Shown here: in pieces, positions 4,642-60,824 of the stretch | Numbering within the stretch: the first letter of the stretch is position 1 | Layout of the letters: each line of letters opens with the position of its first letter | Origin: an uncultured Candidatus Saccharibacteria bacterium | GTDB lineage: Bacteria; Patescibacteriota; Minisyncoccia; UBA6257 | Direction of reading: 5' to 3' | NCBI GenBank assembly: GCA_964479005.1 | Contig: CAYZJA010000001.1 | Span: 128,001-192,000 of the forward strand | Length of the DNA stretch: 64,000 bases | Notes under the pieces: model-generated | What the model was told of the DNA's origin: nothing | Databases searched by the model: none | The model's input: the letters and a program-made list of their open reading frames with translations, nothing else | Translations under genes and position numbers: made by a program

Positions 4642-4713
4642 AATTCAATCAATTTTAGCACAAAGAAAATGAGTTTACAATTCTTATAATTTCTGTTAAT
4701 TTATATAAAGAAC

Positions 4714-4785
4714 GCCGGGGTAACTCAGTGGTAGAGTAGCTGTTTCGTAAACAGCAAGTCGCGAGTTCGAATCTCGCCTCCGGCT
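4714..4785 (+). tRNA. tRNA-Thr (anticodon CGU)
   Basis: Cloverleaf: acceptor GCCGGGG/CTCCGGC; D-arm ACTC-AGTGGTA-GAGT; anticodon stem GCTGT/ACAGC with loop TTCGTAA; T-arm GCGAG-TTCGAAT-CTCGC. Confidence 0.8.
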
Positions 4786-16800: not shown

Positions 16801-18201
16801 TCGTTCACTTTTACTATAAAGGATGATGTATATTCAGATAATAGTGGATCATTAACAGTTAAAATCTATAAAGGCTATGTAGGGGAAACTGGAGAAAAAG
16901 GATGTGTTACATTTAATGGTGTTCCTTATGGCGAGTATATAGTTGATGAAGATCTTCAAAGTGGTTGGATAAATCAAGATGGTTTAGGAAATGTTACAGT
17001 AGATGACCTAGAAGAAACATTTGATGTTGTCAATATTCCACCAGAAGGACAGATAGGTTCTTTAACTGTTTGTAAATATAGAGATCACGAACCATTTGGG
17101 GAATACAATACAGGTATTGATACACCTCTAACTTGGGAGATGAGAATTATTGGACCTAATAGTTATGATCAATTGTACGAAACTGATCCTCAGAATGGAT
17201 GCAAAACAATAAATAATTTAGAATATGGCCAATATGTAGTTTCTGAAGAATTGAAGATTGGTTGGGATCAAACTTATCCTCTTGATCCTAATACCCATAC
17301 CATTGATATAAATGGCGGTAATTCTAATCCATCAGTATATTTCTTGAATTATAAAACAATTGATAATGGTGGAACAAAATATGCTTGTAATGCAGAAGGG
17401 CAATGTATAGAAAATGAAGGGGGTAATTATACCACTTCTAATTGTGATGAAGAATGTAGACCATATCCATATACTTGTAATTCATCTACCTCAGAATGTG
17501 TACGTGATGTTCATGGCCAATTTGGTTTATTGCAAGGTTGTGAGGATGCTTGTAGGGTATCTACTCCATTAGGAGGTCAATATGCAATATTGGGAACAGT
17601 TTTGGGTGCTGCTACTGAAAAGGAAGAAGAACCTTGCGGTCTTTATCTTTTGGAATACATAAAGCTTGGAGGTGATAATAATCCTGAGGAAGTGAAGAAA
17701 TTACAATATTTCTTAAATGAATATCTTGGCATTAATTTAGAGATAACAGGAGTTTATAATCAAGCTACTTATCAAGAAGTTATGAGATTCCAGCTTCTTT
17801 TGAACGATGAAATTTTGGCTCCTTGGGTTGAAGTTAATTGTCTTCCATCTAGTAATATAGCTACTGGTTATGTTTATCGAACAACACAATGGAAAATAAA
17901 TATGATTGTTTGTCCAGAATTGAACCTTCCAGTACCGAATTTATATGATGAAACTTGTAAATATATTAGTCTATATCCAGGAGAAGGTGTAGTTGCTGGA
18001 GCAGCTACTTCTACAGTGGGTGGAACTAATGGAACTACCACAACTACCTCAACTACAACTCCTGAAACAATAGGAGATACTACAACAACTGTTCCTCAAG
18101 ATACTGGGGATGAGCAGTCACAAAATTGGATTTGGGTTTTGATTGGACTTTTAGTGATTGGCGGCGCAGCTTATTTGGTTTATCAAACTAGACAAGTATA
18201 A
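13879..18201 (+). CDS. giant (1440 aa) cell-surface protein with C-terminal TM anchor
   Basis: Signal peptide, multiple Cys-rich beta domains, two regions ~70% identical in protein to the 12024 gene product, a Thr-rich stalk (TTTTSTTTPETIGDTTTT), and a C-terminal helix 'WIWVLIGLLVIGGAAYLVY'. Confidence 0.6.
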   Translation: MKKQFFSKTFSIFLALSFVLSNSAMLVPLQAEACEEEICEDVIVVSNIEDKVFDIAETLPGEAAVLAWDDHPAWTAYIEGANWIWKTEYVENPDQDETYIFKKDFDIVGIPDSATLKVATDNSYSVWVNNVLIGEVITEDNHSSTTQDQYNNIVDFHTGSNEIKFEVKNWAGNASPKLNPAGLLYRLEIVRSSCEPQCIPQSSIETDCTNGLDDDCDGFIDSEDSDCQMLIMASKVICDNESDLPNWGTGSGVDYPSYNIDQNTASDYVAEHSGCYLASNWFFQWGQQGSDDFGKDFYGEAGNGYTTFGPTNENGVASTTVDSVTGSYLELREVLQQGYIPFTYDQSHKSNDNNISAEFYCHNDILNYDNWDYIKNPQLGITHYCVGFNALIEQEEPEPVCGNEIIETGEQCDPPSTTAPNSTDEYFCDQNCNLVPIYHSLDGCPKNQILEFIQSYQIHSTSTTEVIIPVSGSDTYKFEVKGTFYPTQNGKNENFLSDAAYTTEDGWVSTSTKYGIKGIPPDYAAHALLGDLGLGAGVINWGDYDSSHEYDFSYTIPSGATSTQFVIGDRWDNWFIPDDISWNNQGGMKDNLGNLTLDVYECKPIQARCDPKLELVMNGDFESPEVTDLVKKWGIFPSGTTDLEWLINWREIWPSAPKIANLEIQKSYYTPVIAPVVPGDPDQYAELDTDWHGPGGPSGEPASVAISQDIPTIIGETYRLSFDFSPRPYTDLEQNHLKGFVDSAELFDISADGSGLTDTLWNQYSDNFVATSSITNIKFTDYGTPDSLGTFLDNVSVRCVPQDEPTMYHCNEEWQCIADPEGEYNTDNCDNQCIKPGTSTVTICKYNEQEEPLRGWKMILKGDRYDTVPVFPDGQNYSSNPLLLGDYLIQASGQYLYRPGTPGAEYSDAGYTKRNCPGDADYLCSGDYTPWFNVFDIIGIHQGWLGIMVNDNLTDWGYFTSDHTYTLGYPGYSGSFTFTIKDDVYSDNSGSLTVKIYKGYVGETGEKGCVTFNGVPYGEYIVDEDLQSGWINQDGLGNVTVDDLEETFDVVNIPPEGQIGSLTVCKYRDHEPFGEYNTGIDTPLTWEMRIIGPNSYDQLYETDPQNGCKTINNLEYGQYVVSEELKIGWDQTYPLDPNTHTIDINGGNSNPSVYFLNYKTIDNGGTKYACNAEGQCIENEGGNYTTSNCDEECRPYPYTCNSSTSECVRDVHGQFGLLQGCEDACRVSTPLGGQYAILGTVLGAATEKEEEPCGLYLLEYIKLGGDNNPEEVKKLQYFLNEYLGINLEITGVYNQATYQEVMRFQLLLNDEILAPWVEVNCLPSSNIATGYVYRTTQWKINMIVCPELNLPVPNLYDETCKYISLYPGEGVVAGAATSTVGGTNGTTTTTSTTTPETIGDTTTTVPQDTGDEQSQNWIWVLIGLLVIGGAAYLVYQTRQV
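16548..16730. repeat. inter-paralog DNA repeat, copy 2
   Basis: Matches 12560-12742. Confidence 0.8.
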
Positions 18202-18994: not shown

Positions 18995-19549
18995 ATGAAA
19001 AATCAAATATCAAAAATTCCGGTTTTAGTTGCTTTTCTGACAATTATTCCGTTAGTTTGCGGGGCTTTTTCCTTTGAAGAACCTTTTGATGATTTTGAAG
19101 AATGGATTTCGGATCTTAGTGATGGAATGAGTAGTACTCATATAATAAATGAAGTTAAGGTTTTAACAAATACTGGCAATAATGTAATTAATGGCGAAAT
19201 AACAGAAGGTGAAGCAAAAAGCCGGATTTTTATTAAAAACGTTATTAATGGAAAAGAAATAGACCCAATTGAGATTGAATCTGATAAAAACGAAATTAAA
19301 GTGGAAAGCCAAATTAAAACAGAAAATGGCAAAGTTATTATTCAGAGAGAAATTCAAATTGATTCTGAAAAAAGCACTGAAAATTATGAGGTTGATTTGG
19401 AAAATTCAGAAACTGAGACAGAAAGTGAAGGAATATTGAAAGACGGTTTAGATTCCTTTCAAGAAGGATGGTTAGATTTTATCGAAGATTTAAGGTCTTT
19501 TTTTGACGATATCTTTAATATTTTTAAATTAAATGCAAGAATCAAATAG
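18995..19549 (+). CDS. secreted acidic protein carrying one copy of the same repeat
   Basis: Start chosen at the ATG at 18995, which gives the signal peptide 'MKNQISKIPVLVAFLTIIPLVCGAF'. 'INEVKVLTNTGNNVINGEITEGEAKSRIFIKN' matches the repeat. Confidence 0.45.
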   Translation: MKNQISKIPVLVAFLTIIPLVCGAFSFEEPFDDFEEWISDLSDGMSSTHIINEVKVLTNTGNNVINGEITEGEAKSRIFIKNVINGKEIDPIEIESDKNEIKVESQIKTENGKVIIQREIQIDSEKSTENYEVDLENSETETESEGILKDGLDSFQEGWLDFIEDLRSFFDDIFNIFKLNARIK

Positions 19550-22163
19550 ATTAAAAAACTTTATTTTAATTCCTTTGCTAATCATAAGTTTGGTAGGTTT
19601 TAATTTTTATCCCTTTTTGGTTTTTGCAGAAGGAGATGGAGTTGTCACCGAAGGAGTAGTAATTGAGAATAATGAAGACACGCAGATTGTTACTGGAGAT
19701 TCTAATACTGAAGTTAATCTTGAAAACACTGTAAATTCTAATCTTACCGAATTAAACGGGGATGATTCTTCAGACGGAGAATCAGAACCTCTTGAGAATT
19801 TAGAATGTGAGGAAATTGATGTTACTACTTCAAGCACTGATGTTGTTTTTAATATTGCCAATGATAATGAGGCAGAAGTAGAGAATAATATCGAGACTGA
19901 GGAAGAAACTGGAGATAATGAAATTGATCAAAGTGAAGGAGATGCCATCATTGACACCGGAGATATAAATTTAGTCGTTGGCGTAGTTAATACAGTCAAC
20001 ACTAATGTTACTGGTTCTGATTTTTCTCAGCTTTTGTTAAACGTTTTTGAAAATTTAGAAGAAGATATTGATTTATCTGACCAATTAATGGGAATTTCTT
20101 CTTTGGAAAATTGTTATTCACCAATGGAATGTTTTGATCTTAATATTGTTAATGATAACCAAGGAAGTATTGAAAATAATATTTTAGTTGATGCATCAAC
20201 TGGCGAAAATACTGCCCAGAGTATTGATGGAGACGCAATCATTAAGACCGGTAACGCTAATGTTGCAGTTAATGCTTTAAATATTCTCAATACCGATATT
20301 ATCGGCTCAAACTGGACTCAGCTTATTATCAATGTATTTGATAATTGGACTGGCGATTTAGTTTTTCCCGGAAAAGGAAAAATGCAAGGATTTTTAAATC
20401 AAAAACCGCGCTCCTGTGAAGGAGATTGTGGAGATACTAATATAGTTAATTCTAATGAAGGCGAGATTGAAAATAAAGTCCATGTTCAGGCTAATACTGG
20501 CGAAAATCAATCTAATGGAAATTCAAGTATTATCCGCACTGGCCAAGCTAATGCTGAAGTTAATCTTTTAAATATTGCCAATACTAATTTATATGATAAG
20601 AATTGGTTTTTTGTAGGAATTAATAATTTTGGCAACTGGAAAGGAAATGTATTTAGTTTGCCTCCTGGTTTGGAAATGTCAGGAGATTCTAATAGTGTTC
20701 AAATTTATAATCTTGAACTAGAAGATGTTAATAATCCAACAGAAGATTTTGATAATAACACCAGTGGTAATTCTTTGAATATAGTCAATGAAAATACCGG
20801 GATTATTAAAAATAATATTATAGTTAATCTTTCGACTGGCGAGAACTCAGCTATTTCTTCTAACGGTCAGACAACGATAGAGACCGGAGATGCCAATACC
20901 CTAACTAACATTGCCAATCTTTTAAATTCAAATATTGTCGGCAGTAATTGGCTTTTGGGAACTGTAAATATTTTAGGAGATTGGAATGGAGATTTGGCTT
21001 TTGGCCGTCCTGATAATTGGATTGGTGGGAGTGTTGCCTCTTCTCATAATCCGGTTTCTCCTGGAGAAACTATAACTTATACTTTGACATATATTAACAA
21101 TGGGGATGCTGATGCTACACAAGTAATGATTATTGATGATTACGATGAGGCGCATCTTTCTATTATAGATACAGGTGGTGGAATTATCATTGATAATCCT
21201 GGCGAGATTCAGTGGGACATTGGAACAATTGCAGTAGGCGGTTCCGGTTCAGTTTCTTATTCTGCTGTAATTGATCCAGAAGTACCTTATGGTACTACCT
21301 ATCTTACTAATCAGGCGACAATTGATAGTTTTGAAGAAGATTTTAATAATGAAGATAACATTGAAATTTTATCAATTGAAGTGTATAGACCTTTGCCAGT
21401 TGCTTCAGTTATGTTGGGTTTTTCTTCTCCCTCGTCTTCGCCAAAATTGGAAATTAGCAAAACTCACAATGTAGATGATTTCGTTTATTCAGGAAGCGAT
21501 GTTGATTTTAAGATAGTGCTATATAATGATAGCGATAGTTCTGCTTATGATGTTGTCGTTTATGATACTTTACGGAACGATGCATCTGAAGCGATCAGTA
21601 CTTCCCATTGGGATTTGGGAGAAGTTTTCCCTCACGAAGAAATAATTATTGACTATACGGCAGCCATAGGTTCTGAGTTTCCAGCCGGCTTTTATACTAA
21701 TATAGCTGAGGCTCTAGGTTTTGATAGCCAGGGAAATCCAGTTAGTTCTCCTGAGGCCTCTAGCACAATTGAGGTTAGGGCGGCAGAAGTTCCTCCTGAT
21801 GAAACAGAGGAAGTGGAGGAAATTTCTCTTGAGGAGATAGAAAAGGAATTAAAAGAAATGAAAGACAAGATAAGAAAAATAAGAGAAGAGATAGAAAGAC
21901 TTTCTCATCCGTCTCCAGTCGAAGAATTTACAAGTTCTCTTCCAAAACAATTAATATCAGAGGTTTTGGCTGCTGAAGAACCTTTTGTTCCCAAAGAAAA
22001 AATTAATTTGCCTGAAAGAGGTTTGGCTCCGTTGCTTTTGGCTAGCTTAAGAGAGATAGGGGGAACGGATTGGATGATGATTTTGGCCATTTTTTGCCTT
22101 ATTGGGTTAATTATAATTGGAATTAGAGAGTGGGAATTAATTCGAAAAAAGAAAAAGAGATAA
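19533..22163 (+). CDS. large surface protein: 4 copies of the ~50-aa repeat + DUF11/CARDB-like domains + C-terminal TM anchor
   Basis: Four 'IENN(I/V)xVxAxTGxNxAxSxxGxAxIxTGxAxxxVNxLNIxNTxxxGSNW' units. 'PGETITYTLTYINNGDADATQVMIIDDYD' is DUF11-like. Coiled-coil 'EEIEKELKEMKDKIRKIREEIERL'. Terminal helix 'WMMILAIFCLIGLIIIGI'. Confidence 0.55.
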   Translation: MQESNRLKNFILIPLLIISLVGFNFYPFLVFAEGDGVVTEGVVIENNEDTQIVTGDSNTEVNLENTVNSNLTELNGDDSSDGESEPLENLECEEIDVTTSSTDVVFNIANDNEAEVENNIETEEETGDNEIDQSEGDAIIDTGDINLVVGVVNTVNTNVTGSDFSQLLLNVFENLEEDIDLSDQLMGISSLENCYSPMECFDLNIVNDNQGSIENNILVDASTGENTAQSIDGDAIIKTGNANVAVNALNILNTDIIGSNWTQLIINVFDNWTGDLVFPGKGKMQGFLNQKPRSCEGDCGDTNIVNSNEGEIENKVHVQANTGENQSNGNSSIIRTGQANAEVNLLNIANTNLYDKNWFFVGINNFGNWKGNVFSLPPGLEMSGDSNSVQIYNLELEDVNNPTEDFDNNTSGNSLNIVNENTGIIKNNIIVNLSTGENSAISSNGQTTIETGDANTLTNIANLLNSNIVGSNWLLGTVNILGDWNGDLAFGRPDNWIGGSVASSHNPVSPGETITYTLTYINNGDADATQVMIIDDYDEAHLSIIDTGGGIIIDNPGEIQWDIGTIAVGGSGSVSYSAVIDPEVPYGTTYLTNQATIDSFEEDFNNEDNIEILSIEVYRPLPVASVMLGFSSPSSSPKLEISKTHNVDDFVYSGSDVDFKIVLYNDSDSSAYDVVVYDTLRNDASEAISTSHWDLGEVFPHEEIIIDYTAAIGSEFPAGFYTNIAEALGFDSQGNPVSSPEASSTIEVRAAEVPPDETEEVEEISLEEIEKELKEMKDKIRKIREEIERLSHPSPVEEFTSSLPKQLISEVLAAEEPFVPKEKINLPERGLAPLLLASLREIGGTDWMMILAIFCLIGLIIIGIREWELIRKKKKR

Positions 22164-39531: not shown

Positions 39532-39620
39532 CTATTAAATCGTCAATTAATTGATGATTTTTTTATTTTAAAAATAAATTGTGGTATAATTATTTAATAA
39601 TATTAAAATGTTATAAAAAG

Positions 39621-42600
39621 ATGAGTTTTAATAGATCTATAAAAATTTCTGTTGTATTTTTAGTTATTTTCGCTTGGGTATTAAATAGCTTTCCTTTGAA
39701 AGCGGCTGACGGTTCTGGTACAAATGTTGTTGATCCGATTACTGCTACGGCCAGCGCTACAGATAAAACTTTTGATTTTACTTTTACTGCGGCAGAAACA
39801 ATGGATTCTGGCGAGATTTCAATAGCAGTGCCTAGTGGCTGGTCTGCTCCACAAGATATATCAACAACAGTTGGTTATACAACAGCTGCTTCTACTGGTA
39901 TGACAGCTGATGTTTTAACCGCTTTAGATACTCATACTGGTTGGAGCACAGGCAGTAATATAGCCATTTCTGCTGATGGCGCTGATTATCAGGAGGGTTC
40001 ATATTCTATTTCAGCTGATATTGCTGTAGGAGCTCAGGCTGGTGAAAAGTGGTATTTTAACGAACCTGGAGCAAAAGATTTTGGCAGCGCCACAAAGATG
40101 ATTTTTTGGATTAAATCAAGTGTTAATACTAATGCTGGTGATTTGCAATTTGAGGTTGATGATTCTGCTGATTTAGCTTCGCCAGAAGAGACGGTTAATA
40201 TTCCAGCTTTAACAGTTGATACCTGGACTGAAGTAACAATTAGTTTAGGAGCAGCTCGCAGTTCAGTGCTTTCTTATGGAATCAAATACACTGTTGATAT
40301 TGGAGCAGCTACTGTGAAAATTGATGATATAAGGGCAATGTTTGATGATGCTGATGCTACTACTAGTTGGACTCAATCTGGTAGTGGAAAGATTACTATT
40401 AGCTCAGATGCAGCAATAAAAAAACAGGGTACAGCTTCAATCAAAGCTGCCTTTCTCCCTCAGGCTAAACCCTTGGATAAATATTTTTGGTCAAGCGCTA
40501 CACCGAGAAGTTTTGGTTCTTACGCTAGAGTTTCTTTTTGGATTTATTCGAGTAAGGCAACAGAAGCTGATGATTTGAAATGGGAGAATGATAATAGTAC
40601 AGGTCTAGCCTCGCCCGAAGATACTATTGGTCTTCCAGCCCTAGCTGCTACTACCTGGACCTATCTCCAGGTTACTCTTGGGGCAACCAGGACTTCGGTT
40701 CTCTCCCACGGTATTCACCAAGTAATTGACTTAGGAGCTCATAATGAATATGTTGACGCTATGGCTGTGCAGGTTAATGCAGCTGAATCAACTACTAATT
40801 GGACAAAGACCTCTCCAATGGTTTTAAGCACTGATACAACTGTTTATCATGAAAATGCTGCGTCTTTGAAAAATATTGTAGCAGTTACTGCTGGAACTGG
40901 AGATGAATGGTGGTATAATTTAGGAGCTGCAGATGATTGGTCAAGTTATACTAATGTTGGTTTTTGGATTCGTTCAACAGTTAATACTTCTGGTGGAAAT
41001 TTACAATTTGAATATGATGATAATACTGATTTAGCTTCTCCAATTGCTTCTCTTGATATTGGCGCTTTAACTGCTAATACCTGGTCTTATCAAAATTTAA
41101 CTTTAACTGATACTCGAACAACTATTAATAGTTATGGTTTTAAATATACTACTGATGTAGGAGCAGTTATTATTAATGCTGATGATATTCTTTTGGGTCC
41201 TGGAGAACCAAGTTTTTCTGGAAGCGGACCGTGGGATATTAATGTAAGAATTTTAGCTTTAGCTAATACAGAAACAATTACTGTGACTTATGGTGATAAT
41301 GCAGGTTCTGGAGGTGGAGTAACTGTTACTTCTGCAACTGGTGACGCTACTTTTACAACCAAATCCAGAATTTCTGATTCAGGAACTCTTACTAATATTG
41401 CCTCTTCTCCAGTTGTAACAGTCGGCACAGCACTGGTTGTTGATAATGTTCAGTTAAATGGTCAGGCTGCAATTGATTTAATTGAAAACACAACTAAATC
41501 TGTATCAGCTACAGCTAATATTTCTCATCCTACAGATTGTAATCTTATTACCAATGTAACATCTAAAATTTATCGTTCAGGTGTCACTAATAATAAAGAT
41601 TGCACATCTGATAATAATGATTGTTATAGTGTTGCTTCTTGCAGTAAAACTTCTTGCGTTGAAACAGAGGCTGTTTATACTTGTACGATTAATATGCAGT
41701 TTCACGCTGATCCGACTGATGAAGATGCAGAATATTGGAGAGCTTGGATTGAAGCAACTGATGGATCTTTGACAAATTCTAATTATAGTCCAGTTGACGC
41801 GCCTGATGTTAATACTTTACGGGCTCTGAATACTACTGCGACAATTAACTATGGAACATTAGATCCCGGACAAAATAGTACCTCGACAAATCAACAAATC
41901 ACAGTGACAAATACTGGCAATGATGCTATTGATATTAGACTTTATGGTATTGATATGACTTGGAACGGAAATACTATTGACACAGCTAATCAAGAATACA
42001 GTTTATCTCCATTTACTTATGGTTCTGGAAATTATCTTAAGGAAGCACCAAGCTATGATGATGTGGATGCTAATTTGCCAAAACCTACAGAATCGCCATC
42101 AAATTCGTCAGATATTTTTTATTGGGGACTAGGTATTCCTTCACCAATGCCTTCAGGTGGACCTTATCAGGGAACAAATACATTTGAAGCGATAAATGAT
42201 CAGGGGGTACTTGGTTGGTATAATCCATCTTGGGGATATAGAGTAAAAGTTACGGTTTTAGCATCAGAAGTTGACGCTGATTTAACTGATTATCCCGTAT
42301 ATGTAGATTTATCTAATTTACCAGCAGGATTTCATACTAATGTTAACCAGACAGATGCAAGGGATATTCGTGTTACGAAATATAATGGTACATTAGAAGT
42401 TCCAAGGGAAGTTGTTTTTTATGATTCAGCAACTGATACTGGGGAGTTACATTTTAAAGGAAATGTAGATGATGGTACAAATACTGATTTCTATATTTAT
42501 TATGGAAATGGTGGGGCAAGTGATTATGCGGTAGATGCAGAATTTGGGGCAGAAAATGTTTGGAATGCGAATGCCAAAATGGTTCAGCATATGAAAGATG

Positions 42601-43244
42601 ACCCTGACACTTCTCATATTAAAGACAGTACTGTGAATGCTAATAATGGCACAAAAAAAGCAGCAAATGAACCGGTAGAAGCAGACGCTAAAATAGCCAA
42701 AGGGCAAAGTTTTGACGGAGCGGATGATTATGTGGATGCTCCTATTCCCAACCTAATTGATTACACTTATGAAGCGTGGTTTTATACTCGAAGTTTTGTT
42801 AATGGTAATGCTAATGATGGTACGGGCACTTATTTTATAGATAGACAAATTGGAGGTAACTCATTGGTTTCTCTAAAGGCTATTAGTGGAAATTTCGCAC
42901 ATCAGTATAGAGATAATGCTGGTGCAGGTCTTGGAGCAGTTCAAGGTGGCGCAATTCAGCTAGATACTTGGCAGCATGTTGTTTGGGGAAGGGAGGAAGG
43001 AATAGGGTTTTTCATTTATGTTGATACTATCAAAAATAGCGTTGCTGATACTCTTGGTGCTTTGACTCCCGACTCACCAAGAATTGGAGCACATCAAGGT
43101 TTAGTAATTTTTTTAAACGGTCTCATCGATGAAATTCGTATATCCAATATTGCACGTTCTTCAACCTGGATTTCTACAGAATACAATAATCAGTCATCAC
43201 CTAGTTCTTTTTACACAGTGGGAAACCAAGAAGAGAGTTACTAA
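39621..43244 (+). CDS. giant secreted protein: 4 tandem ~135-aa repeats + DUF2341-like + LamG/ConA-like lectin domain
   Basis: Signal peptide 'MSFNRSIKISVVFLVIFAWVLNSFPLKAA' from the ATG at 39621. Repeats read '…TGW(S/T)…W(Y/F)…(K/S)…FWI(K/R)SSVNT…G(D/N)LQFE(V/Y)DD…DLASP…'. 'YRVKVTV…YVDLSNLP' is DUF2341-like. The C-terminal 'FDGADDYVDAP…WQHVVW…' is LamG-like. Confidence 0.6.
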   Translation: MSFNRSIKISVVFLVIFAWVLNSFPLKAADGSGTNVVDPITATASATDKTFDFTFTAAETMDSGEISIAVPSGWSAPQDISTTVGYTTAASTGMTADVLTALDTHTGWSTGSNIAISADGADYQEGSYSISADIAVGAQAGEKWYFNEPGAKDFGSATKMIFWIKSSVNTNAGDLQFEVDDSADLASPEETVNIPALTVDTWTEVTISLGAARSSVLSYGIKYTVDIGAATVKIDDIRAMFDDADATTSWTQSGSGKITISSDAAIKKQGTASIKAAFLPQAKPLDKYFWSSATPRSFGSYARVSFWIYSSKATEADDLKWENDNSTGLASPEDTIGLPALAATTWTYLQVTLGATRTSVLSHGIHQVIDLGAHNEYVDAMAVQVNAAESTTNWTKTSPMVLSTDTTVYHENAASLKNIVAVTAGTGDEWWYNLGAADDWSSYTNVGFWIRSTVNTSGGNLQFEYDDNTDLASPIASLDIGALTANTWSYQNLTLTDTRTTINSYGFKYTTDVGAVIINADDILLGPGEPSFSGSGPWDINVRILALANTETITVTYGDNAGSGGGVTVTSATGDATFTTKSRISDSGTLTNIASSPVVTVGTALVVDNVQLNGQAAIDLIENTTKSVSATANISHPTDCNLITNVTSKIYRSGVTNNKDCTSDNNDCYSVASCSKTSCVETEAVYTCTINMQFHADPTDEDAEYWRAWIEATDGSLTNSNYSPVDAPDVNTLRALNTTATINYGTLDPGQNSTSTNQQITVTNTGNDAIDIRLYGIDMTWNGNTIDTANQEYSLSPFTYGSGNYLKEAPSYDDVDANLPKPTESPSNSSDIFYWGLGIPSPMPSGGPYQGTNTFEAINDQGVLGWYNPSWGYRVKVTVLASEVDADLTDYPVYVDLSNLPAGFHTNVNQTDARDIRVTKYNGTLEVPREVVFYDSATDTGELHFKGNVDDGTNTDFYIYYGNGGASDYAVDAEFGAENVWNANAKMVQHMKDDPDTSHIKDSTVNANNGTKKAANEPVEADAKIAKGQSFDGADDYVDAPIPNLIDYTYEAWFYTRSFVNGNANDGTGTYFIDRQIGGNSLVSLKAISGNFAHQYRDNAGAGLGAVQGGAIQLDTWQHVVWGREEGIGFFIYVDTIKNSVADTLGALTPDSPRIGAHQGLVIFLNGLIDEIRISNIARSSTWISTEYNNQSSPSSFYTVGNQEESY

Positions 43245-46248: not shown

Positions 46249-47160
46249 ATGTTCAGAAATTCAAATCGTTTTGGAATTTTTATTATTATTTTAATTTTTT
46301 TTGGATTTTTATCCTCAATCTTTTTATTTCCAAAAAAAACATTTTCAGAAATGCTTTCTACTTCTGTACAGGTACAGATAGTAACTACAACCATCGGTGG
46401 CGGAGGTGGGGGTGGGGGATATATTCCACCTTTGCCACCAGAAACAAAAGTTATTTTTGAAGGAAGGGCTTATCCTTTAAGTAAAGTTAATATTCTTAAA
46501 GATGGTCAGTTAGCTGTTAGCACTATTTCTGGTCCAGATGCAAAATTTTATGTTTCAATAGAAGGCTTATCTTCTGGAAACTATTTGTTTGCAGTTTATA
46601 GCGAGGATAGTCAGGGAAGACGTTCTGTATTATTCACTTTTCCGGTTTTTATTACTCAAGGAGTCACCACCAAGATAAGTGGTATTTTTATTGCGCCAAC
46701 TATTGATGTAGATAAATTGGAAGTCAAAAAAGGGGAAGTAATTAAAATTTTTGGCCAAACAGTTCCTAATATCGATGTTGCCGTTATCATTAATTCCGAA
46801 GAAGAAATTTATGGGAAAACAAAATCAGACGAAATAGGCGCTTATCTTTATAATTTAGATACTATAGAAGTAGAAATGGGAAATCATTTGGCAAAATCAA
46901 GGGCTACTATTGAAGAAGAAATTAGTCCTTTATCGCAAGCAATAAGTTTTAAGGTAGGAACAAAAACAGTTTTAAAAGAAACTGTAAAAATACCAGAAAA
47001 AGGGGATTTAAATAATGATAAAAGGGTAAATTTGGTTGATTTTTCCATTCTTGCTTATTGGTATCAAAGGCCATCACCTTCAGCAACAGTTGATTTTAAC
47101 AATGATGGAAAAGTAAACTTAGTGGATTTTAGTATAATGGCATACTACTGGACAGGTTAA
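46249..47160 (+). CDS. secreted protein with C-terminal type-I dockerin
   Basis: Two Ca-binding repeats: 'DLNNDKRVNLVDFSILAYW' and 'DFNNDGKVNLVDFSIMAYYW'. Also an internal Gly8 tract. Confidence 0.7.
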   Translation: MFRNSNRFGIFIIILIFFGFLSSIFLFPKKTFSEMLSTSVQVQIVTTTIGGGGGGGGYIPPLPPETKVIFEGRAYPLSKVNILKDGQLAVSTISGPDAKFYVSIEGLSSGNYLFAVYSEDSQGRRSVLFTFPVFITQGVTTKISGIFIAPTIDVDKLEVKKGEVIKIFGQTVPNIDVAVIINSEEEIYGKTKSDEIGAYLYNLDTIEVEMGNHLAKSRATIEEEISPLSQAISFKVGTKTVLKETVKIPEKGDLNNDKRVNLVDFSILAYWYQRPSPSATVDFNNDGKVNLVDFSIMAYYWTG

Positions 47161-47200: not shown

Positions 47201-48172
47201 ATGACAAAAACTCAAAAACTAATTTTTATTCTTCTATTTTCTACTTTCTGCTTTCTATTTTTTAGTTCTTCTTCTACTTTAGCCGCGGAGTTATATTTGG
47301 AGAATTCCGAGGATAATTATTACGTTGATGAAACTTTTATTACTGATATAAGGATTAATGTTGAAAATAATGAAAGCATTAATGCTATTGAAGGTTATTT
47401 AAAATTTCCAAGTAATATTTTGGAAGTAAAAGATTTTAGCACTGGTAATTCGATACTTACTTTTATTGAAGAGCCAAAAATTAATAAAGAAGAAGGTTTG
47501 ATTTCTTTTGTTGGAATTATTCCTGGTGGATATAGTGGAAGGATTCCTGGTGATCCTGGACAAAGTAATCTTTTAGGAAAAATAATTTTTTATTCTATTT
47601 TTTCTGGCACAGCAGAGATTATTTTTGAAGATAGATCACAAGCATTATTAAGCGATGGGGAGGGAACACCAGCTAAGTTAATTAATAAAGGAGTAACTAT
47701 TGAGATCGTAACTAAACCCTTCGACTACGCTCAGGGCAAGGATGAATGGCAGGAACAATTAGAAAAAGACAAAATTCCTCCAGAAGATTTTAAACCAGAA
47801 ATTATTAAAATTGATGATAAATATTATTTAGCTTTTACTACTAAAGATAAAGATTCTGGTATTGATCATTATGAAGTTTTAGAAAAGAATTTTTGGACAA
47901 ATATAAGTAAATTATTAGGAAGAGAAAAATGGATAGTCGCAGAAAGTCCTTATTTATTAAATGGGCAATCATTAAGTAATAGGATAGAAATAAAAACAAT
48001 AGATAAAGCGGGCAATGAGAGAATTGTTAAATTACCAGCTACATATTATTTGCCTTGGTATAAAAATTACTTTATTTGGGTTATACTTATAATAAGTATT
48101 TTTTATGTGATATGGAGAATAATCGCGAAACAGAAAAAAAACAATACGCGAAACCCCGAAGAAAAGCCTTAG
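47201..48172 (+). CDS. membrane-anchored cohesin-like scaffold protein
   Basis: Signal peptide. 'ELYLENSEDNYYVDETFITDIRINVENNESINAIEGYLKFPSNILEVKDFSTGNSILTF…' has the cohesin-type beta-sandwich pattern. C-terminal TM helix 'YFIWVILIISIFYVIWRI'. Confidence 0.5.
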   Translation: MTKTQKLIFILLFSTFCFLFFSSSSTLAAELYLENSEDNYYVDETFITDIRINVENNESINAIEGYLKFPSNILEVKDFSTGNSILTFIEEPKINKEEGLISFVGIIPGGYSGRIPGDPGQSNLLGKIIFYSIFSGTAEIIFEDRSQALLSDGEGTPAKLINKGVTIEIVTKPFDYAQGKDEWQEQLEKDKIPPEDFKPEIIKIDDKYYLAFTTKDKDSGIDHYEVLEKNFWTNISKLLGREKWIVAESPYLLNGQSLSNRIEIKTIDKAGNERIVKLPATYYLPWYKNYFIWVILIISIFYVIWRIIAKQKKNNTRNPEEKP

Positions 48173-49929
48173 GCTTCCTACGGGGCAGGCAGACGCGAAA
48201 TTTCTTAATTTGGTTTAGCGTCGGTTTAGCGTTTTTCCTTGGCGTTGGTTTAACGCTGCCTGTGGTAGCGCAAGCGGCAAGTCTATATTTTTATCCTTCA
48301 TCTGGTTCTTATTCCATTGGTCAAACTCTTACTGACTCTGTCTATGTTTCCAGTTCTGATCAGGCAATCAACGCGGCTTCAGGAATTATTTCCTTTCCAC
48401 AGAATAAAATACAGGTTGTATCACTTTCAAAAACAGGTTCTATAATGAGTCTTTGGGTTCAAGAACCATCTTTTTCTAATACTATTGGGACAATCAACTT
48501 TGAAGGTATTATATTAAATCCTGGGTTTATCGGAAATAATGGCAAGATTATTGATATTATTTTTAAATCAAAGGCGTCAGGAATTACACCGTTAAGTTTT
48601 TTTTCAGCGTCAGTTTTGGCTAATGATGGTAAAGGGACAAATATTTTAACAAGCTCTGGGAGCGCTAAATATAATATTATAATCACTACAACTACAGCAA
48701 CCTCGCCAAGTATACCAACTGGGGATGCAAGAACGCCAAGCGCTGTAATTATTTCTTCTGAAACTCATTCCGATTCTAATAAGTGGTATAGTTCTGCAAC
48801 AGCTGAACTTTCTTGGCCTTTAACTGATGATATTACGGCTACTCGTCTTCTTATTAGCAGAAGCTCAAAAGCTTATCCTACTGTGATTTATACACCTGCG
48901 ATTTCTTCTAAAACAATCACCAATTTAGGTGAGGGTATTTGGTATTTTTATGTACAGCTCAGAAATAAATATGGGTGGGGTGATGTTGCTCATTTTCGTT
49001 TACAGATTGATAATACTCCTCCAGGGCCATTAGAAGTTGAAATAGACAATGAAGGAGACCCTACTAATCCTCAGCCCTTGCTTTGCTTTAAAACAAGTGA
49101 TTTTTTATCAGGAATTGATTTTTATGAAATAAAGATTGGAGAGATCTATAATCTCCAGATTTCAATTAATGAAATAAAGGATAATATTTATCGTTTACCG
49201 CTTTGTCCTCCAGGCGAATATTCATTAATAGTAAAAGCCGTAGATAAAGTAGGAAAATACAGTTCAGTAACAAAAAAATTAAATATAGCATCAATAGACG
49301 TTCCAATTATTAGTGACTACTCAAGAATATTATCTAAAAATGATTACTTAGTAATTCTGGGTTATGCAAGATTAAATGATATTGTAAAGTTGTTTATTAA
49401 AAGTGAAAATAAAAAAGTTGCAAGTTATATTGCTAAACGCGATAATGAAAAATGGAGTTATAAAGCAGAAAAACCTTTGCAAGCAGGGATTTATGCAATT
49501 TGGGCACAAGCAGTTGATTCTCGTGGAGCTAAAAGTAATTTTTCAGAAAAAGTCGAAATTTCCGTAGATTCTCCAGCATTTCTTAGATTTGGATTTGGCA
49601 ATTTTATAGTTAGTTATATTGATATTATAATTATTTTTATTATTCTTATTGTTCTTACAGCATTGGCTTGGGTCTATTATGCAAGAATAAAATTAGTGCA
49701 GACAAATCTTCTTAAAGAAGATATTACACAGACTCAGAAAAACTTATACGAAGCTTTTGATCTTTTGAGAAGAGAAGTTACAAGAGAAATAGCCAAACTT
49801 GATAATAATGATCTTTTATCAGAGAGAGAAGAAGCAGTTAATGAAGAATTGAAAAAAGCTATTAGAAAGTCAGAAGAGTTAATTACTGAAGAAATTAAAG
49901 ATATAAAAGAAAAAATAGACAAATCGTAA
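48112..49929 (+). CDS. membrane-anchored cohesin-like scaffold protein with C-terminal coiled coil
   Basis: Start taken at the ATG at 48112 (basic tail then signal anchor). 'ASLYFYPSSGSYSIGQTLTDSVYVSSSDQAINAASGIISFPQNKIQVVSLSKTGSIMSLW' is paralogous to the 47201 domain. A TM helix follows near the C-terminus, then a charged coiled coil. Confidence 0.5.
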   Translation: MENNRETEKKQYAKPRRKALGFLRGRQTRNFLIWFSVGLAFFLGVGLTLPVVAQAASLYFYPSSGSYSIGQTLTDSVYVSSSDQAINAASGIISFPQNKIQVVSLSKTGSIMSLWVQEPSFSNTIGTINFEGIILNPGFIGNNGKIIDIIFKSKASGITPLSFFSASVLANDGKGTNILTSSGSAKYNIIITTTTATSPSIPTGDARTPSAVIISSETHSDSNKWYSSATAELSWPLTDDITATRLLISRSSKAYPTVIYTPAISSKTITNLGEGIWYFYVQLRNKYGWGDVAHFRLQIDNTPPGPLEVEIDNEGDPTNPQPLLCFKTSDFLSGIDFYEIKIGEIYNLQISINEIKDNIYRLPLCPPGEYSLIVKAVDKVGKYSSVTKKLNIASIDVPIISDYSRILSKNDYLVILGYARLNDIVKLFIKSENKKVASYIAKRDNEKWSYKAEKPLQAGIYAIWAQAVDSRGAKSNFSEKVEISVDSPAFLRFGFGNFIVSYIDIIIIFIILIVLTALAWVYYARIKLVQTNLLKEDITQTQKNLYEAFDLLRREVTREIAKLDNNDLLSEREEAVNEELKKAIRKSEELITEEIKDIKEKIDKS

Positions 49930-52303: not shown

Positions 52304-52352
52304 TATCATTGCAATATTGACTTTTTGTTTGTTTTTTGCTTTAATTAATAAT

Positions 52353-53462
52353 ATGAGTATAAACAATTTTAACTTAAGTAAAGAGAGTCCACATCAATTG
52401 GCTCTTAAAATCATTGCTATTTTACCTTCCCGCACGCAGGATATTGTTAAGAAAAGATTTGGTTTAGATAATAACGATCCTAAAACATTAGAAGCAGTTG
52501 GTCAGGATTATAAGATTACGAGGGAGAGAATTAGGCAAATTATAGAGGTAGCTTTAAAAACTGTTAAAAAACAGCCAGTTTTAAAAATGGCTGATGTTTT
52601 TATAAAGCAAGCTGAACAGATTTTAAAGCAAAGCGGAGGAGTAGACGAGAACGTGAGGTTCCTTACAAAAATAGATAAGCAGTTTAAAGAATCAAAAGGG
52701 AATCTGTCCGCAATTAGATTTTTATTGGCATTAAATCCTGATTTTTCATTTGAAGAAGAAAATGATTTATACAATAGTTTTTGGCATTTTTCCAGGATTT
52801 CCAAAAATAAAATTTATAAAAATATTAAAAATATAGAAGGACTTTTTAAGAAAAAACAATCAACTTATTTGATGAACGAAATATTGACTTTGGTTAAAAA
52901 AAATATTTCCTCAAATATTAATAAGGAAGAGCTAAGGGCATATTTAGAAATATCCAAGAAAGTTGGTATGAATCCATTTGGCGAGTATGGCCTATTTGAT
53001 TGGATGGAGATAGATCCATCTGGCGCTCGCGATAGGGCATATTTAATAATGAAACATTCTAAAAAGCCTTTACATTTTTCTGATATTACAAAACGCCTTA
53101 ATGAGTGTAATGAAATAACTATTCCAGCATCTGTTGCCTCTCATTCTTGGCAAAAGAAAGTATGTATTCAAACAGTGCATAATGAATTAATCCGTGATTC
53201 CCGTTTTGTTCTTATTGGAAGGGGAATTTATGCGTTAGGAGAGTGGGGTTATAAACCTGGAAAAATAGTCAATGTTATTAAGGATATTTTAAAGGAAGCC
53301 GGAAAACCGTTAAAACAGGAAGCAATCATTAAGGAAGTTAAAAAACGCAGAATGGCAAAAGATAATACTATTATTTTGAATCTTCATAATAAGAAATATT
53401 TTAAAAAATTGCCGAATAAATATTATAGCTTAGTTAGGTCCTATAAAATATTAGAGGTTTAA
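52353..53462 (+). CDS. sigma-70 region-4-like HTH domain protein
   Basis: '[28 protein letters not shown]' is a sigma region 4.2-type HTH; the remainder is unassigned. Start set at the in-frame ATG at 52353. Confidence 0.45.
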   Translation: MSINNFNLSKESPHQLALKIIAILPSRTQDIVKKRFGLDNNDPKTLEAVGQDYKITRERIRQIIEVALKTVKKQPVLKMADVFIKQAEQILKQSGGVDENVRFLTKIDKQFKESKGNLSAIRFLLALNPDFSFEEENDLYNSFWHFSRISKNKIYKNIKNIEGLFKKKQSTYLMNEILTLVKKNISSNINKEELRAYLEISKKVGMNPFGEYGLFDWMEIDPSGARDRAYLIMKHSKKPLHFSDITKRLNECNEITIPASVASHSWQKKVCIQTVHNELIRDSRFVLIGRGIYALGEWGYKPGKIVNVIKDILKEAGKPLKQEAIIKEVKKRRMAKDNTIILNLHNKKYFKKLPNKYYSLVRSYKILEV

Positions 53463-54655
53463 TGTTAGGAGAGATTATTCGTGAATTTTGGTGGATATTA
53501 GCCCTTATTGTTTTGGGGAAGTTTTTTATTGATTCAAGTAAAAAGTATGAAGAGAAAAAAAAGAAAGAAAAAGAAGAGATAAAAGATTGGGTTACTCTAC
53601 AAGCAAAGATTAATCGTGAGATATTACAAACTCCTAAAGCAATGGAGCAAGTATTTAATGGTTTTCATGTTATAGAAAAGGGATATATTTGCTTAGAGCT
53701 GGTTGGTATGGACAGAGAGATATATTTTATTATTCGCGCACCTAAAGAATATAAAAATTTAGTAGAATCACAATTTTACGCGCAATATCCAGAAATAGAA
53801 ATTAAAGAGATTGATGATTATTTTTCACGTCTTCCAGCTCATTTACCAAATAAGGATTTTGATTTATGGGGAACCGAGATCATTTTAGAAAAAGAAAATT
53901 ATTATCCTATTAAAACTTATTCTTATTTTGAGGAATTAAAAGAAGAAAAAAGAATTGATCCAATATCAAGTTTTGCAGAAAGTATTGCCAAGCTTCAAAA
54001 ATCTGAATGGTTTATTTTAGAGATTCTTATTAAACCTCTTTCTGATAAAGATGAGGAAAAATTTATAAATGAAGGGAAAAAACAGATTGACAGTATGTTA
54101 GGTAAAAAAAAGGGAAAAGAAATTACTTGGACAGATTGGGTTGGAGCTTTTTTTAAAAATCTTTTAGTAGGACTAGTTGAACCTCCAGTTTGGCCTACAA
54201 AAGAAGAAAAGAAAAATGGGGCGCCTTTAGTCATTTCATCTGGTGAAAAGGATATAATTAAATCAATTGAAAATAAAATAAGCCGATTATCATTTAATAC
54301 AAACATAAGATTGATTTATATTTCCCCAAAAAAGATTTTTAACGAATCTAATATTTCCGCTTTTATGGCGTTTTTGAAACAATTTAATTCAAAAGATTTA
54401 AATGGTTTTAAGATCAACAAAGACGCTTCTACAATTCTTAAATCTAAATTTTTGCAAAACAGAAGATTATTTTTAAAAAAGATGGATTTTTATCAAAAGT
54501 GTTTAAAGCGAACAAAAACGCAAGATGCAATGATTTTAAACACAGAAGAATTGGCGACTATTTATCATTTCCCGGCATTAAAGGTTGTAACCCCTACATT
54601 GGTCAGGGTTTTGAGTAAAAAAGGCGAACCGCCAGCAGGGTTGCCAGTAGAATAA
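53462..54655 (+). CDS. membrane-anchored hypothetical protein (partner of downstream ATPase)
   Basis: N-terminal TM helix 'FWWILALIVLGKFFI'. Stop/start coupled with the ATPase gene. Confidence 0.35.
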   Translation: MLGEIIREFWWILALIVLGKFFIDSSKKYEEKKKKEKEEIKDWVTLQAKINREILQTPKAMEQVFNGFHVIEKGYICLELVGMDREIYFIIRAPKEYKNLVESQFYAQYPEIEIKEIDDYFSRLPAHLPNKDFDLWGTEIILEKENYYPIKTYSYFEELKEEKRIDPISSFAESIAKLQKSEWFILEILIKPLSDKDEEKFINEGKKQIDSMLGKKKGKEITWTDWVGAFFKNLLVGLVEPPVWPTKEEKKNGAPLVISSGEKDIIKSIENKISRLSFNTNIRLIYISPKKIFNESNISAFMAFLKQFNSKDLNGFKINKDASTILKSKFLQNRRLFLKKMDFYQKCLKRTKTQDAMILNTEELATIYHFPALKVVTPTLVRVLSKKGEPPAGLPVE

Positions 54656-54659
54656 ATTT

Positions 54660-56210
54660 ATGGATATAAATCATATTGGAATAACAAATTTTAGAGATGA
54701 ATTTCAGCGATTTGGCATTAAAGCCGATGATAGGCGTCGGCATATATATTTTGTTGGAAAGAGTGGAGTAGGTAAGACTACAATGATGGAGAATATGATT
54801 ATTCAGGATATTAATAATGACAAAGGTGTATGTGTTATTGATCCTCACGGAGAATTAATAAACAGAGTTCTTTACTTTATTCCTGAAAACAGAATAAAAG
54901 ATGTGATTTATTTTAATCCTGGCGATGTTGAATGGCCAATTGCTTTTAATGTTATTGAAGAAGTTCCAGTAGAATATCGCCATTTGGTTGTAGCGGGTTT
55001 AATGGGAGTCTTTAAAAAAATCTGGCCAGATGTATGGTCTGCCAGAATGGAATATATCTTAAATAATGCTTTACTGGCTCTTTTAGAATATCCTGGAGCA
55101 ACGCTTTTAGCTGTAAACAGATTGCTTTCTGACGAAGATTTTCGTAAAGCAGTAATGAAAAAGGTAACAGATCCAATAGTTAAATCTTTTTGGGAAAGAG
55201 AGTTTGCTCGTTATAATGCCCGCTTTGCGACAGAAGCAATTGCTCCAATTCAAAATAAAGTTGGGCAATTTATTTCAAACCCTTTAATTAGAAATATTAT
55301 TGGACAGAAAGAATCAAAAATTGATATCAGGAAAATAATGGATGATGGTAAGATTCTTTTAGCTAATTTGTCAAAAGGAATGGTTGGTGAGGATAATTCT
55401 AGTCTTTTGGGAGCTCTCTTGGTTACAAAAATACAATTAGCTGCAATGAGCCGTATAGATGTTCCTGAAGAGAAAAGAAAGGATTTTTATTTGTACGTAG
55501 ATGAGTTTCAAAATTTTTCCACTGAATCATTTGCTTCTATTTTTGCCGAAGCTAGAAAGTATCGTTTAAACTTAGCTTTAGCTCATCAATATATAGCTCA
55601 ACTTAATGAGCAAGTTAAAGATTCTATTTTTGGTAATATAGGAACTTTGATTTCTTTTAGATTGGGCCCTGAAGACGCGGAATTACTGGAAAAATATTTT
55701 GCTCCAGAATTTTCAAAAGAAGATTTAATTAATCTTCCAAATTATAATTTTTATATAAAATTGATGATTGATGGTGTTTTGTCCAAAAGTTTTTCAGCGA
55801 TGAATATACCACCTTCTAGTTTGCCAGAGAACTCGTTTATACAAGAAATAATTCAGTATTCACGTGAGCATTATGCTGCTTTGCGGCAAGAAATTGAAAA
55901 GAATATCGCGCATTGGGAGTTATTGGATTTTTCTCCAAGCTTCAAGGCAGGGGATCTTAGAAGCAGAAAAGTTGGCGTTAAAGAAGGTTGGGAAGCTGTA
56001 TGTTCTCAATGTGGAAAAAGAATTATTGTACCTTTTCAACCAGATCCTGCCAGGCCTGTTTATTGTGATGAATGTTTTAAAGAAATACGAAGGCAAAGAG
56101 GAAAAGATTTAACACATGCAAATTCTGTTCAGCATACTCAATCTAAAATTAAACCAAAAAAAGAAGAAATAAAGGAGGTAATTAAAAATATTTTCCGTCA
56201 GGATACTTAA
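54660..56210 (+). CDS. TraD/VirD4/HerA-FtsK-superfamily P-loop ATPase with C-terminal zinc ribbon
   Basis: Walker A 'FVGKSGVGKTT' followed by 'VIDPHGE' (compare TrwB 'DPKGD'). Walker B 'LYVDEFQNF'. 'EARKYRLNLALAHQ' is a sensor/arginine-finger region. Terminal 'CSQCGKRII…PVYCDEC'. Confidence 0.55.
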   Translation: MDINHIGITNFRDEFQRFGIKADDRRRHIYFVGKSGVGKTTMMENMIIQDINNDKGVCVIDPHGELINRVLYFIPENRIKDVIYFNPGDVEWPIAFNVIEEVPVEYRHLVVAGLMGVFKKIWPDVWSARMEYILNNALLALLEYPGATLLAVNRLLSDEDFRKAVMKKVTDPIVKSFWEREFARYNARFATEAIAPIQNKVGQFISNPLIRNIIGQKESKIDIRKIMDDGKILLANLSKGMVGEDNSSLLGALLVTKIQLAAMSRIDVPEEKRKDFYLYVDEFQNFSTESFASIFAEARKYRLNLALAHQYIAQLNEQVKDSIFGNIGTLISFRLGPEDAELLEKYFAPEFSKEDLINLPNYNFYIKLMIDGVLSKSFSAMNIPPSSLPENSFIQEIIQYSREHYAALRQEIEKNIAHWELLDFSPSFKAGDLRSRKVGVKEGWEAVCSQCGKRIIVPFQPDPARPVYCDECFKEIRRQRGKDLTHANSVQHTQSKIKPKKEEIKEVIKNIFRQDT

Positions 56211-59507: not shown

Positions 59508-60824
59508 ATGAAACGAATTAAAAAAAACAAAAAGAAGAAAAAAGTTAGAAAAGGAAAAGCCCGTCTTGCTAAAACTTTAGTGAGGCGAGCAAAAAAGGTA
59601 AAAGTTGTAAAAAAGAAAAGAAAAGTAAAAATCATTAAAAGAACAAGAAAAGTAAGGAAGATGAGGAAAATCAAAAAAACCGGGAAGATTAAGAATAACA
59701 AGAAGGTCAAGAATATTAAGAAAAAAAGGCAACAGCCCAAAAAAGAGAAAATACAAGAAAAGATAGGGGTATTGATTGAAAGGGGTAAATCGCGAGGATT
59801 TATTACCCAAGATGAGATCTTAAAATATTTTCCACGCATTGAAGCAGATATTAATCTTTTAGAAAAACTTTATGATGCATTAGCAGAGGTTAATATTGAA
59901 GTAGTAGAAAGTGGGGATTTATTGATACCAAAAAAAGAAGTTTCTGATAAAGAATTAAAAGATGCTTTAAAAGTTCCAAGTTCCAGGGTATTATCTGGGG
60001 CAGTTCAGTCATATCTTAGGGAGATAGGAAAAGTTTCTCTTTTAACTGCTGAGGAAGAAAGGGAATTAGCAAAAAAAGTAGATAGCGGAGATGAACAAGC
60101 AAGACGAAAGATGATTGAAGCCAATCTCCGTTTAGTGGTTTCTATTGCCAAACGTTATATCGGCCGAAGCAGAAATTTGGGCTTATTGGATTTGATTCAG
60201 GAAGGCAATATTGGTCTTTCTAAAGCAGTTGATAAATTTGATTACAAAAAAGGTTTTAAATTTTCCACTTATGCCACTTGGTGGATCAGGCAAGCGATTA
60301 CACGGGCTTTAGCTGATCAAGGACGGACGATTCGTATTCCCGTACATATGGTTGAAACAATTACCAAATATTTAAAAACAAGAAGGGCATTGGCTCAAAC
60401 ATTGGGGAGGGATCCTTTACCAGAAGAAATAGCTTCTGAAATGGGGAAAGAAGTTGAAGAAATTCTTTACCTTATGAGAATTTCTCAAAGCACTTCATCA
60501 TTAAATCAACCAGTAGGGGATGAAGATGGCGGCAGCCAGTTAGGAGATTTTATTTCAGATACGAAAGCCATAACTCCTGATAGCCATGCTGCAAGAGAAT
60601 TGTTAAAAACCGAATTAGAAAAAATTATGAGTGAATTATCTGAAAGAGAAAGAGAGATCATAAAAATGAGGTTTGGCTTGGAAGATGAAATCACCCATAC
60701 ATTAGAAGAAGTAGGAAAATCTTTTGGCGTGACTCGAGAAAGAATTAGACAGATTGAAGCTAAAACCTTAGAAAAACTTAAAGAACATTCTCAATCTAAT
60801 AGACTCAAAGAGTTTTTAAAGTAG
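59508..60824 (+). CDS. rpoD: RNA polymerase sigma-70 factor RpoD with ~85-aa poly-Lys/Arg N-terminal extension
   Basis: Region 1.1 starts at '[16 protein letters not shown]'; region 2 at '[31 protein letters not shown]'; region 4 at '[27 protein letters not shown]'. Preceded by [17 protein letters not shown]…. Confidence 0.9.

Follow-up and report, generated by a model that had tools for sequence, protein, structure and literature searches.

A coupling protein-type ATPase and its probable membrane anchor as separate genes in a conserved three-gene array of Patescibacteria

The Patescibacteria form a large share of bacterial diversity and are host-dependent. The locus considered here, at positions 52353-56210 of a 64,000-nucleotide stretch of patescibacterial DNA (the window), raises the question of what kind of machine three closely packed genes of such an organism encode and what it serves. 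The sequence-only reading had taken them for three open reading frames (ORFs) specifying a helix-turn-helix (HTH) protein, a membrane protein and a possible translocase of the FtsK/HerA/VirD4 type. Translation confirms the three ORFs, co-directional and all on the + strand (coordinates throughout are window positions). The first encodes an HTH protein (52353-53462; 369 aa) in which a sigma-70 region 4 at the N-terminus is followed by a central HARE-HTH domain, the second a DUF8128 protein (53462-54655; 397 aa) with an N-terminal transmembrane (TM) anchor and a predicted fold like that of the VirB4 N-terminal domain, and the third a P-loop ATPase of the type IV coupling protein (T4CP; VirD4/TrwB) type (54660-56210; 516 aa) with a C-terminal zinc ribbon and basic tail. 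The region is thus a set of three packed genes for a DNA-binding protein and a two-gene T4CP-type motor.

The motifs first quoted for the ATPase are all present. Walker A (GKSGVGKTT) spans 54756-54782 (residues 33-41) and VIDPHGE, which aligns to VDPNGD of TrwB, spans 54834-54854 (residues 59-65); Walker B (YVDEFQNF, residues 279-286) and the sensor glutamine in RKYRLNLALAHQ (residues 299-310) together occupy 55494-55589. A treble-clef zinc ribbon of the form CxxC-x17-CxxC (C448-x2-C451-x17-C469-x2-C472; Pfam zf_Tbcl_2, NCBIfam TIGR04272) lies at 55986-56084. The catalytic motifs and all four cysteines are invariant in an alignment of 32 sequences that includes relatives down to 56% identity. 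The Pfam families TrwB_AAD_bind (43.5 bits against a cut-off of 20.5), T4SS-DNA_transf (23.6 against 20.1), TraG-D_C (25.3 against 22) and DUF87 all score above cut-off, and the best NCBIfam matches, to VirD4-like CD1115 and TraD models, all fall far short of the equivalog cut-offs.

Comparison with TrwB/VirD4, HerA and FtsK, the check proposed with the original reading, placed a translocase family first: the family profile matched TrwB in the PDB at 5e-7, DotL at 1.6e-4 and HerA only at 0.075. Fold comparison gave values of 29.3 for the VirB4 C-terminal domain, 28.2 for the DptH C-terminal domain, 26.1 for TrwB, 23.3 for HerA, 23.0 for DotL, 20.9 for Cag-beta and 15.3 for FtsK, so that HerA and FtsK score lower than VirD4 and VirB4. 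VirB4 and VirD4 are not separable by fold alone but are separable by sequence. Like TrwB of R388, VirD4 and DotL, the window ATPase combines a RecA-like nucleotide-binding domain with an inserted all-alpha domain and shares Walker A, VDPxGx, Walker B and RKxxL...Q motifs, so that the VirD4-clade P-loop domain with its RK..L...Q sensor and the all-alpha insertion expected of a T4CP are both in place. Unlike HerA, it has no HAS-barrel N-domain and no NurA or Sir2/DUF partner; of the FtsK/SpoIIIE layout of multi-pass N-terminal TM region, alpha/beta motor and gamma winged-helix domain, it lacks the multi-TM and gamma parts. The VirD4 part of the initial assignment therefore stands, while FtsK and HerA prove more distant than VirD4 and VirB4. 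As to the idea that the trio might replace FtsK, an FtsK is annotated in TM7x.

The clade is defined more closely by relatives that tblastn found on plasmids. The plasmid of Embleya sp. NBC_00896 encodes an 812-residue protein (WP_331738717.1) which carries a TM segment (residues 36-54), a DUF8128-like region (115-393) and an ATPase (398-783) on a single chain, within a cluster of the order PrgI-like, separate VirB4 (TraC/AAA_10/P-loop_TraG), T4CP, Replic_Relax and NlpC/P60. The profile of the window ATPase aligns to the ATPase half of this protein with a probability of 100, an E value of 8e-46 and 33% identity over 379 columns (hhalign). Since the Embleya protein occupies the coupling-protein position in a type IV secretion system (T4SS) cluster, this close homology to the T4CP of a bona fide conjugation cluster identifies the window ATPase as a T4CP-clade enzyme, and at the level of sequence it belongs to the VirD4/TrwB clade. 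The remaining marks of a T4CP are distributed differently. Hydropathy shows no hydrophobic or TM segment in the ATPase, and the N-terminal TM anchor that a T4CP bears on the same chain sits on the DUF8128 protein; neither the window nor the annotated loci L001-L003 showed genetic association with a relaxase or virB4.

A second single-chain relative, an 883-residue protein of a Shouchella clausii plasmid (WP_248290882.1), has a DUF8128-like region at 52-311 (probability 98.2, E value 5e-14; hhalign) followed by a DUF87/TrwB_AAD_bind ATPase at 326-671, with no predicted TM segment. Its gene is followed by a Replic_Relax gene and then by TcpC-like and AAA_10 VirB4 genes. Assignment of this plasmid to the pLS20 family was considered and dropped, as the T4CP and relaxase of pLS20 differ. 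In the Embleya protein the DUF8128-like region is colinear with the window protein (E value 3e-4; hhalign) and has the same ELAxxxHxP...PPxxxP motif. At the junction of the fused proteins, E(E)LAxxxxLP...PP is followed by a beta-hairpin ahead of Walker A, and the corresponding motif, LNTEELATIYHFP...KKGEPPxxLP (54536-54652), forms the C-terminus of the window DUF8128 protein, where E363, L364, A365, H369, P371, P378, P391 and P395 are invariant; it thus matches the inter-domain linker of single-chain T4CPs and recurs at the domain junction of both the Shouchella and the Embleya proteins. Because this junction coincides with the end of DUF8128 and the start of the ATPase, the pair corresponds to a monoderm-type T4CP cut at its linker; as judged from the aligned sequences, the break between the window genes falls exactly in the T4CP inter-domain linker. 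The window pair and the fused plasmid T4CPs, which are themselves uncharacterised annotations, share in order a DUF8128-like N-domain, the (E)ELAxxxHxP...PPxxxP linker, the beta-hairpin, Walker A, the all-alpha insertion, Walker B and the sensor Gln, and the Embleya T4CP also begins with a TM anchor, as the window DUF8128 protein does. Unlike the plasmid proteins, the window pair is encoded by two genes, is chromosomal and syntenic with secDF, has a sigma-4/HARE-HTH gene ahead of it and no adjacent VirB4, VirB3 or relaxase gene, and its ATPases often carry a C-terminal Zn ribbon.

The DUF8128 protein is therefore the detached N-terminal half of a T4CP type. Its earlier description as a TM-anchored 397-aa protein linked to the ATPase is borne out, whereas its status as an independent membrane partner is not. 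The single hydrophobic segment is N-terminal (residues 5-23; 53474-53530) and is followed by a Lys-rich cytoplasmic flank. Among 32 homologues (hydropathy and residue counts), the N-terminal side of this segment is nearly devoid of Lys and Arg and the C-terminal side has 4-9 such residues in most cases, which argues for an N-out/C-in topology. In the AlphaFold2 model a long helix spans residues 10-38, and confidence (pLDDT) is low at residues 375-395; we propose that the C-terminal motif is a docking tail for the ATPase. The Pfam family PF26449 (DUF8128) gave no match on the window protein in the local Pfam copy but is precomputed on the identical public protein, on each of the 120 homologues listed and on the L001-L003 neighbours. 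A search of the PDB with the DUF8128 sequence gave no match, and we found no mention of DUF8128 in the literature searched. Its profile recovered 3,434 clusters from 1.84 billion representatives; no fusions occur among the 150 clusters listed, all of which are stand-alone proteins of 320-550 aa. Canonical T4CPs have their own N-terminal TM domain and no domain like the VirB4 N-terminal domain, whereas here a separate protein carries both.

The resemblance of both halves to VirB4 at the level of fold (TrwK of R388; the VirB4 C-terminal domain of Thermoanaerobacter pseudethanolicus) raises the possibility that the pair is instead a second VirB4, the assembly and pilus-biogenesis ATPase, cut into its N- and C-terminal domains. 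The ATPase profile does align to a TrsE-type VirB4 alignment (probability 93.4; hhalign), but with an E value of 2.5e-7 this match is far weaker than that to the Embleya T4CP, whose cluster has a separate VirB4. The VirB4 Pfam families CagE_TrbE_VirB, AAA_10 and P-loop_TraG give no match on the ATPase, in contrast to TrwB_AAD_bind, TraG-D_C and VirD4-like CD1115; VirB3, VirB6 and VirB8 genes are absent from the neighbourhood in the window and in L001-L003. As the pair also differs from VirB4 in lying in two genes, and as a separate VirB4 accompanies its closest relatives in sequence, we regard a split VirB4 paralogue as improbable.

Two further plasmid matches show the components in other arrangements. 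On pNATPE01 of the haloarchaeon Natrinema pellirubrum (L086, 8590-12757), a 382-aa DUF8128-like gene (probability 96) directly precedes a 994-aa T4CP-type ATPase; neither protein has a predicted TM segment, and two TIR-domain genes and ComEC/Rec2 lie within 9 kb. A Sulfitobacter mediterraneus plasmid (NZ_CP081110.1; L087, 6983-8170) encodes a stand-alone 395-aa ATPase, flanked by transposases and a recombinase, which lacks a DUF8128 gene and a Zn ribbon and yet, at 40.6% identity, is closer to the window ATPase than any other plasmid match. This alphaproteobacterial plasmid may have received it by transfer from a Patescibacteria-like source.

Conservation of the arrangement was assessed by scanning one genome per species. 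At least 576 species have a DUF8128 relative, and the 80 species-level loci that were kept all come from Patescibacteria-type metagenome-assembled genomes, some of which bear clearly generic submitter labels. Gene order was counted only in loci with enough flanking DNA. The linkage between membrane protein and ATPase on which the original proposal depended is conserved, the ATPase lying directly downstream of DUF8128 in 63/70 loci, and the sigma-4/HARE-HTH gene immediately precedes DUF8128 in 71/74. The intergenic gap has a median of 21 nt between DUF8128 and the ATPase and of 52 nt between the HTH gene and DUF8128. The three-gene array is tight and conserved across the phylum, and its recurrence in 80 loci of different species shows that it is not due to chance. 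In the window itself, the HTH stop and DUF8128 start overlap (TAATG, with GAGG upstream), and a 4-nt spacer separates the DUF8128 stop from the ATPase ATG. The translational coupling once ascribed to the ATPase and membrane genes thus holds as close spacing but not as literal overlap, which occurs at the HTH/DUF8128 junction. In L026 the HTH and DUF8128 genes are separate, 12 nt apart. Two loci, L064 (7845-10049) and L076 (7848-10016), have yceG/mltG after DUF8128 in place of the ATPase and no ATPase homologue within 8 kb, so that the pair is separable in the genome. In L003, metK (S-adenosylmethionine synthetase; 3589-4755) lies between secD and secF in an otherwise contiguous secD-secF-HTH-DUF8128-ATPase array. 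Median identity to the window proteins is 58% for the ATPase, 49% for SecD, 40% for SecF, 36% for the HTH protein and 35% for DUF8128.

The HTH protein had been described as sigma-region-4-type, which Pfam supports (Sigma70_r4, residues 21-73; 52413-52571) and to which a HARE-HTH domain is now added (residues 229-298; 53037-53246), with the RNA polymerase (RNAP) delta model TIGR04567 below cut-off. Both domains are present in 26/26 orthologues tested. The family profile matches SigA/RpoD region 4 in the PDB at ~1e-19, and the window region 4 is 45% identical to that of the window's own RpoD and retains the TRERIRQI recognition helix. Sigma region 2 was not found in the 26 orthologues, and none of the sigma NCBIfam models scores anywhere near its cut-off; lacking region 2, the protein is not a sigma factor. 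Close relatives carry the JGI label 'RNAP delta subunit'. Sigma region 4 and the delta-like HARE-HTH are RNAP- or promoter-binding modules in known contexts, and the linkage of the gene points to a protein that may bind DNA or RNAP as a partner of the module or may regulate it. The protein was also considered as a degenerate relaxase and rejected, hhalign showing no similarity to the Replic_Relax protein. The start at 52353 agrees with the public gene call, and the 369-aa product is identical to public calls; an alternative upstream TTG start is possible at 52317.

The strength of the HTH linkage, equal to that of the ATPase, also bears on whether the ATPase might be a mobile-element remnant or an anti-phage module (HerA, DptH or MADS-like) to which the adjoining HTH gene has no relation. 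Relatives do reside on plasmids, and PADLOC gave a mad8 match of 53.6 bits along with weak HerA matches, which were judged to reflect a shared fold and not membership of such a system. The trio keeps the same syntenic place on the chromosome in at least 576 species-level genomes and is under strong purifying selection, its base composition is in line with the rest of the window, and no integrase, transposase, nuclease or methylase partner was found in the window. We therefore consider such an origin very unlikely indeed.

What, then, would the motor serve? To our knowledge, no T4SS other than that of Patescibacteria has been shown to be required for growth. The reading that we favour, with somewhat better than even confidence, is that a T4CP in two pieces feeds a translocon in the membrane, for which the T4SS is the likeliest candidate. 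The TM helix would keep the DUF8128 domain at the membrane on its cytoplasmic side, where the body of this domain and its EELAxxxHFP...GEPPxxLP tail would bind the ATPase at the N-terminal beta-hairpin region, and the two proteins would form a ring tethered to the membrane, probably hexameric like that of TrwB. Powered by ATP hydrolysis at the Walker A/B site, the ring might then move nucleic acid or nucleoprotein towards a channel in the membrane; the all-alpha domain, together with the Zn ribbon and basic tail in proteins that have them, would hold this substrate. With one TM helix per subunit the pair forms no channel, so the motor must dock on something; the most likely channel would be the patescibacterial T4SS (VirB4/VirB6/VirB8), presumably encoded elsewhere in the genome. 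This is the most economical dock because, in Quinonero-Coronel et al. (2025; PMC12102498), VirB4 is reported in 2,417 of 3,035 Patescibacteria genomes and the T4SS is assigned a monoderm MPF-FATA ancestry, which fits the Actinobacteria/Firmicutes relatives described above. In the weakest step of the scheme, the HTH protein would take the genomic place of a lost relaxase and may act as a DNA- or RNAP-binding adaptor or regulator.

Several observations weigh against a T4SS-linked coupling protein of this kind. VirB or relaxase genes were not found within ~10 kb of the trio, in the window or in L001-L003, and in this respect, too, the trio differs from canonical T4CPs, which have a relaxase or T4SS neighbourhood. 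According to the same paper (PMC12102498), only 148 of 5,713 patescibacterial T4CP homologues lie near virB4, such homologues occur in 2,918 genomes (96%) compared with 2,417 (80%) for VirB4, and the t4cp homologue of S. epibionticum is non-essential, whereas the T4SS genes are essential. ATPase identity exceeds that of SecD in 43/43 loci, a constraint unusually strong for a T4CP and a conservation level that better suits a housekeeping role. The zinc ribbon is found in 37/65 complete ORFs across the phylum and is absent from 28/65. Finally, profile comparisons of DUF8128 with pGO1 TrsD and with the TrsE-type VirB4 alignment gave no support (hhalign), so that its likeness to the VirB4 N-terminal domain is a structural one, seen in predicted models only.

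Many of these points suit a machine of the same split, T4CP-derived build which no longer serves a T4SS and has been exapted as a housekeeping motor. It might work at the membrane on imported nucleic acid or on that of the cell itself; it could, for example, take up DNA or RNA together with ComEC or pili, handle the chromosome at division, or, by way of the sigma-4/HARE-HTH protein, clear or tether transcription complexes. The surroundings of the trio are always of the housekeeping kind, with secDF upstream (secF within 2.6 kb in 34/55 loci) and genes such as ddl, pgk and DHH downstream, and its upstream partner has an intact -35 recognition helix in sigma region 4 and a delta-like HARE-HTH where a relaxase might have been. 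The authors of PMC12102498 raise exaptation themselves. However, their counts pool all T4CP homologues rather than the window-type family alone, ComEC, pilus and division genes are not linked to the trio in the loci examined, and a single TM helix per subunit would still require another translocon. An exapted motor is accordingly a credible alternative, although clearly the less probable of the two.

A narrower idea, which we consider rather doubtful, is that the trio is a nucleic-acid intake motor, a membrane-tethered ring that would pull host DNA or RNA inwards through the T4SS or another channel. Patescibacteria cannot make their own nucleotides. The sigma-4/HARE-HTH protein would in that case pass on or sort the incoming nucleic acid, or link its intake to RNA polymerase. 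If correct, this would account for a motor that is better conserved than SecD and near-universal in the phylum.

The zinc ribbon itself is present in 119/120 of the nearest clusters. In view of its phylum-wide distribution it is a lineage-variable accessory, and its description as a universal feature was dropped. Orthologues without it end in a Cys-free, basic, Pro-rich tail. In these proteins (L005-L023 and others) the C-terminus is a Pro/Lys-rich low-complexity stretch ending in a conserved V(N/D)(L/I)xELxxAL(x)ESL helix, to which the C-terminal EIKEVIKNIF of the window ATPase is related; many other homologues terminate in (E/N)PGQxIxF.

The wider setting is as first described, with ddl, dgkA and dnaG, as well as rpoD and a Mur ligase gene, downstream of the trio, and with secD and secF upstream. 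The remainder of the window consists of housekeeping and surface-protein genes. Counts from a promoter and terminator scan were at chance level and operon boundaries could not be placed. The + strand carries nearly all ORFs of at least 120 aa in the window (1-64000), 31/32 bins of 2 kb have a positive GC skew and cumulative skew climbs steadily, which is consistent with a single replichore whose genes are co-oriented with replication. Large proteins of secreted or surface type, mostly unannotatable, are encoded at 13879-18201, 39579-43244, 19533-22163, 48076-49929 and 46249-47160; one of 1440 aa has only a weak SpaA-like match and one of 1221 aa matches nothing in Pfam, whereas the 876-aa protein carries DUF11, the 617-aa protein combines Big_13 with a coiled coil and a TM segment at the C-terminus, and a further one has a dockerin domain. 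The rpoD gene (59508-60824) has an N-terminal extension of ~85 residues (59508-59770), almost all Lys or Arg, which is overlain by an artefactual antisense ORF. Close relatives carry the annotation Candidatus Paceibacterota.

That Patescibacteria have orphan T4CP homologues is known already. Those described by Quinonero-Coronel et al. (2025; PMC12102498), VirD4-type HMM matches that are chromosomal, far from virB4 and present in nearly all genomes, are very probably the same gene set as that considered here. Within the portion of the literature available to our search, we found no account of the split architecture, of DUF8128 as an N-terminal half like that of VirB4, of the HTH companion or of the level of conservation. 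The near-universal 'orphan' T4CP homologue is, on the favoured reading, one half of the motor of a conserved three-gene unit, with DUF8128 as the missing membrane-anchoring N-terminal half and a protein with two RNA-polymerase-binding modules as its constant companion. More than 3,400 DUF8128 clusters would thereby gain an annotation, and the fused relatives can guide studies of how the two halves interact.

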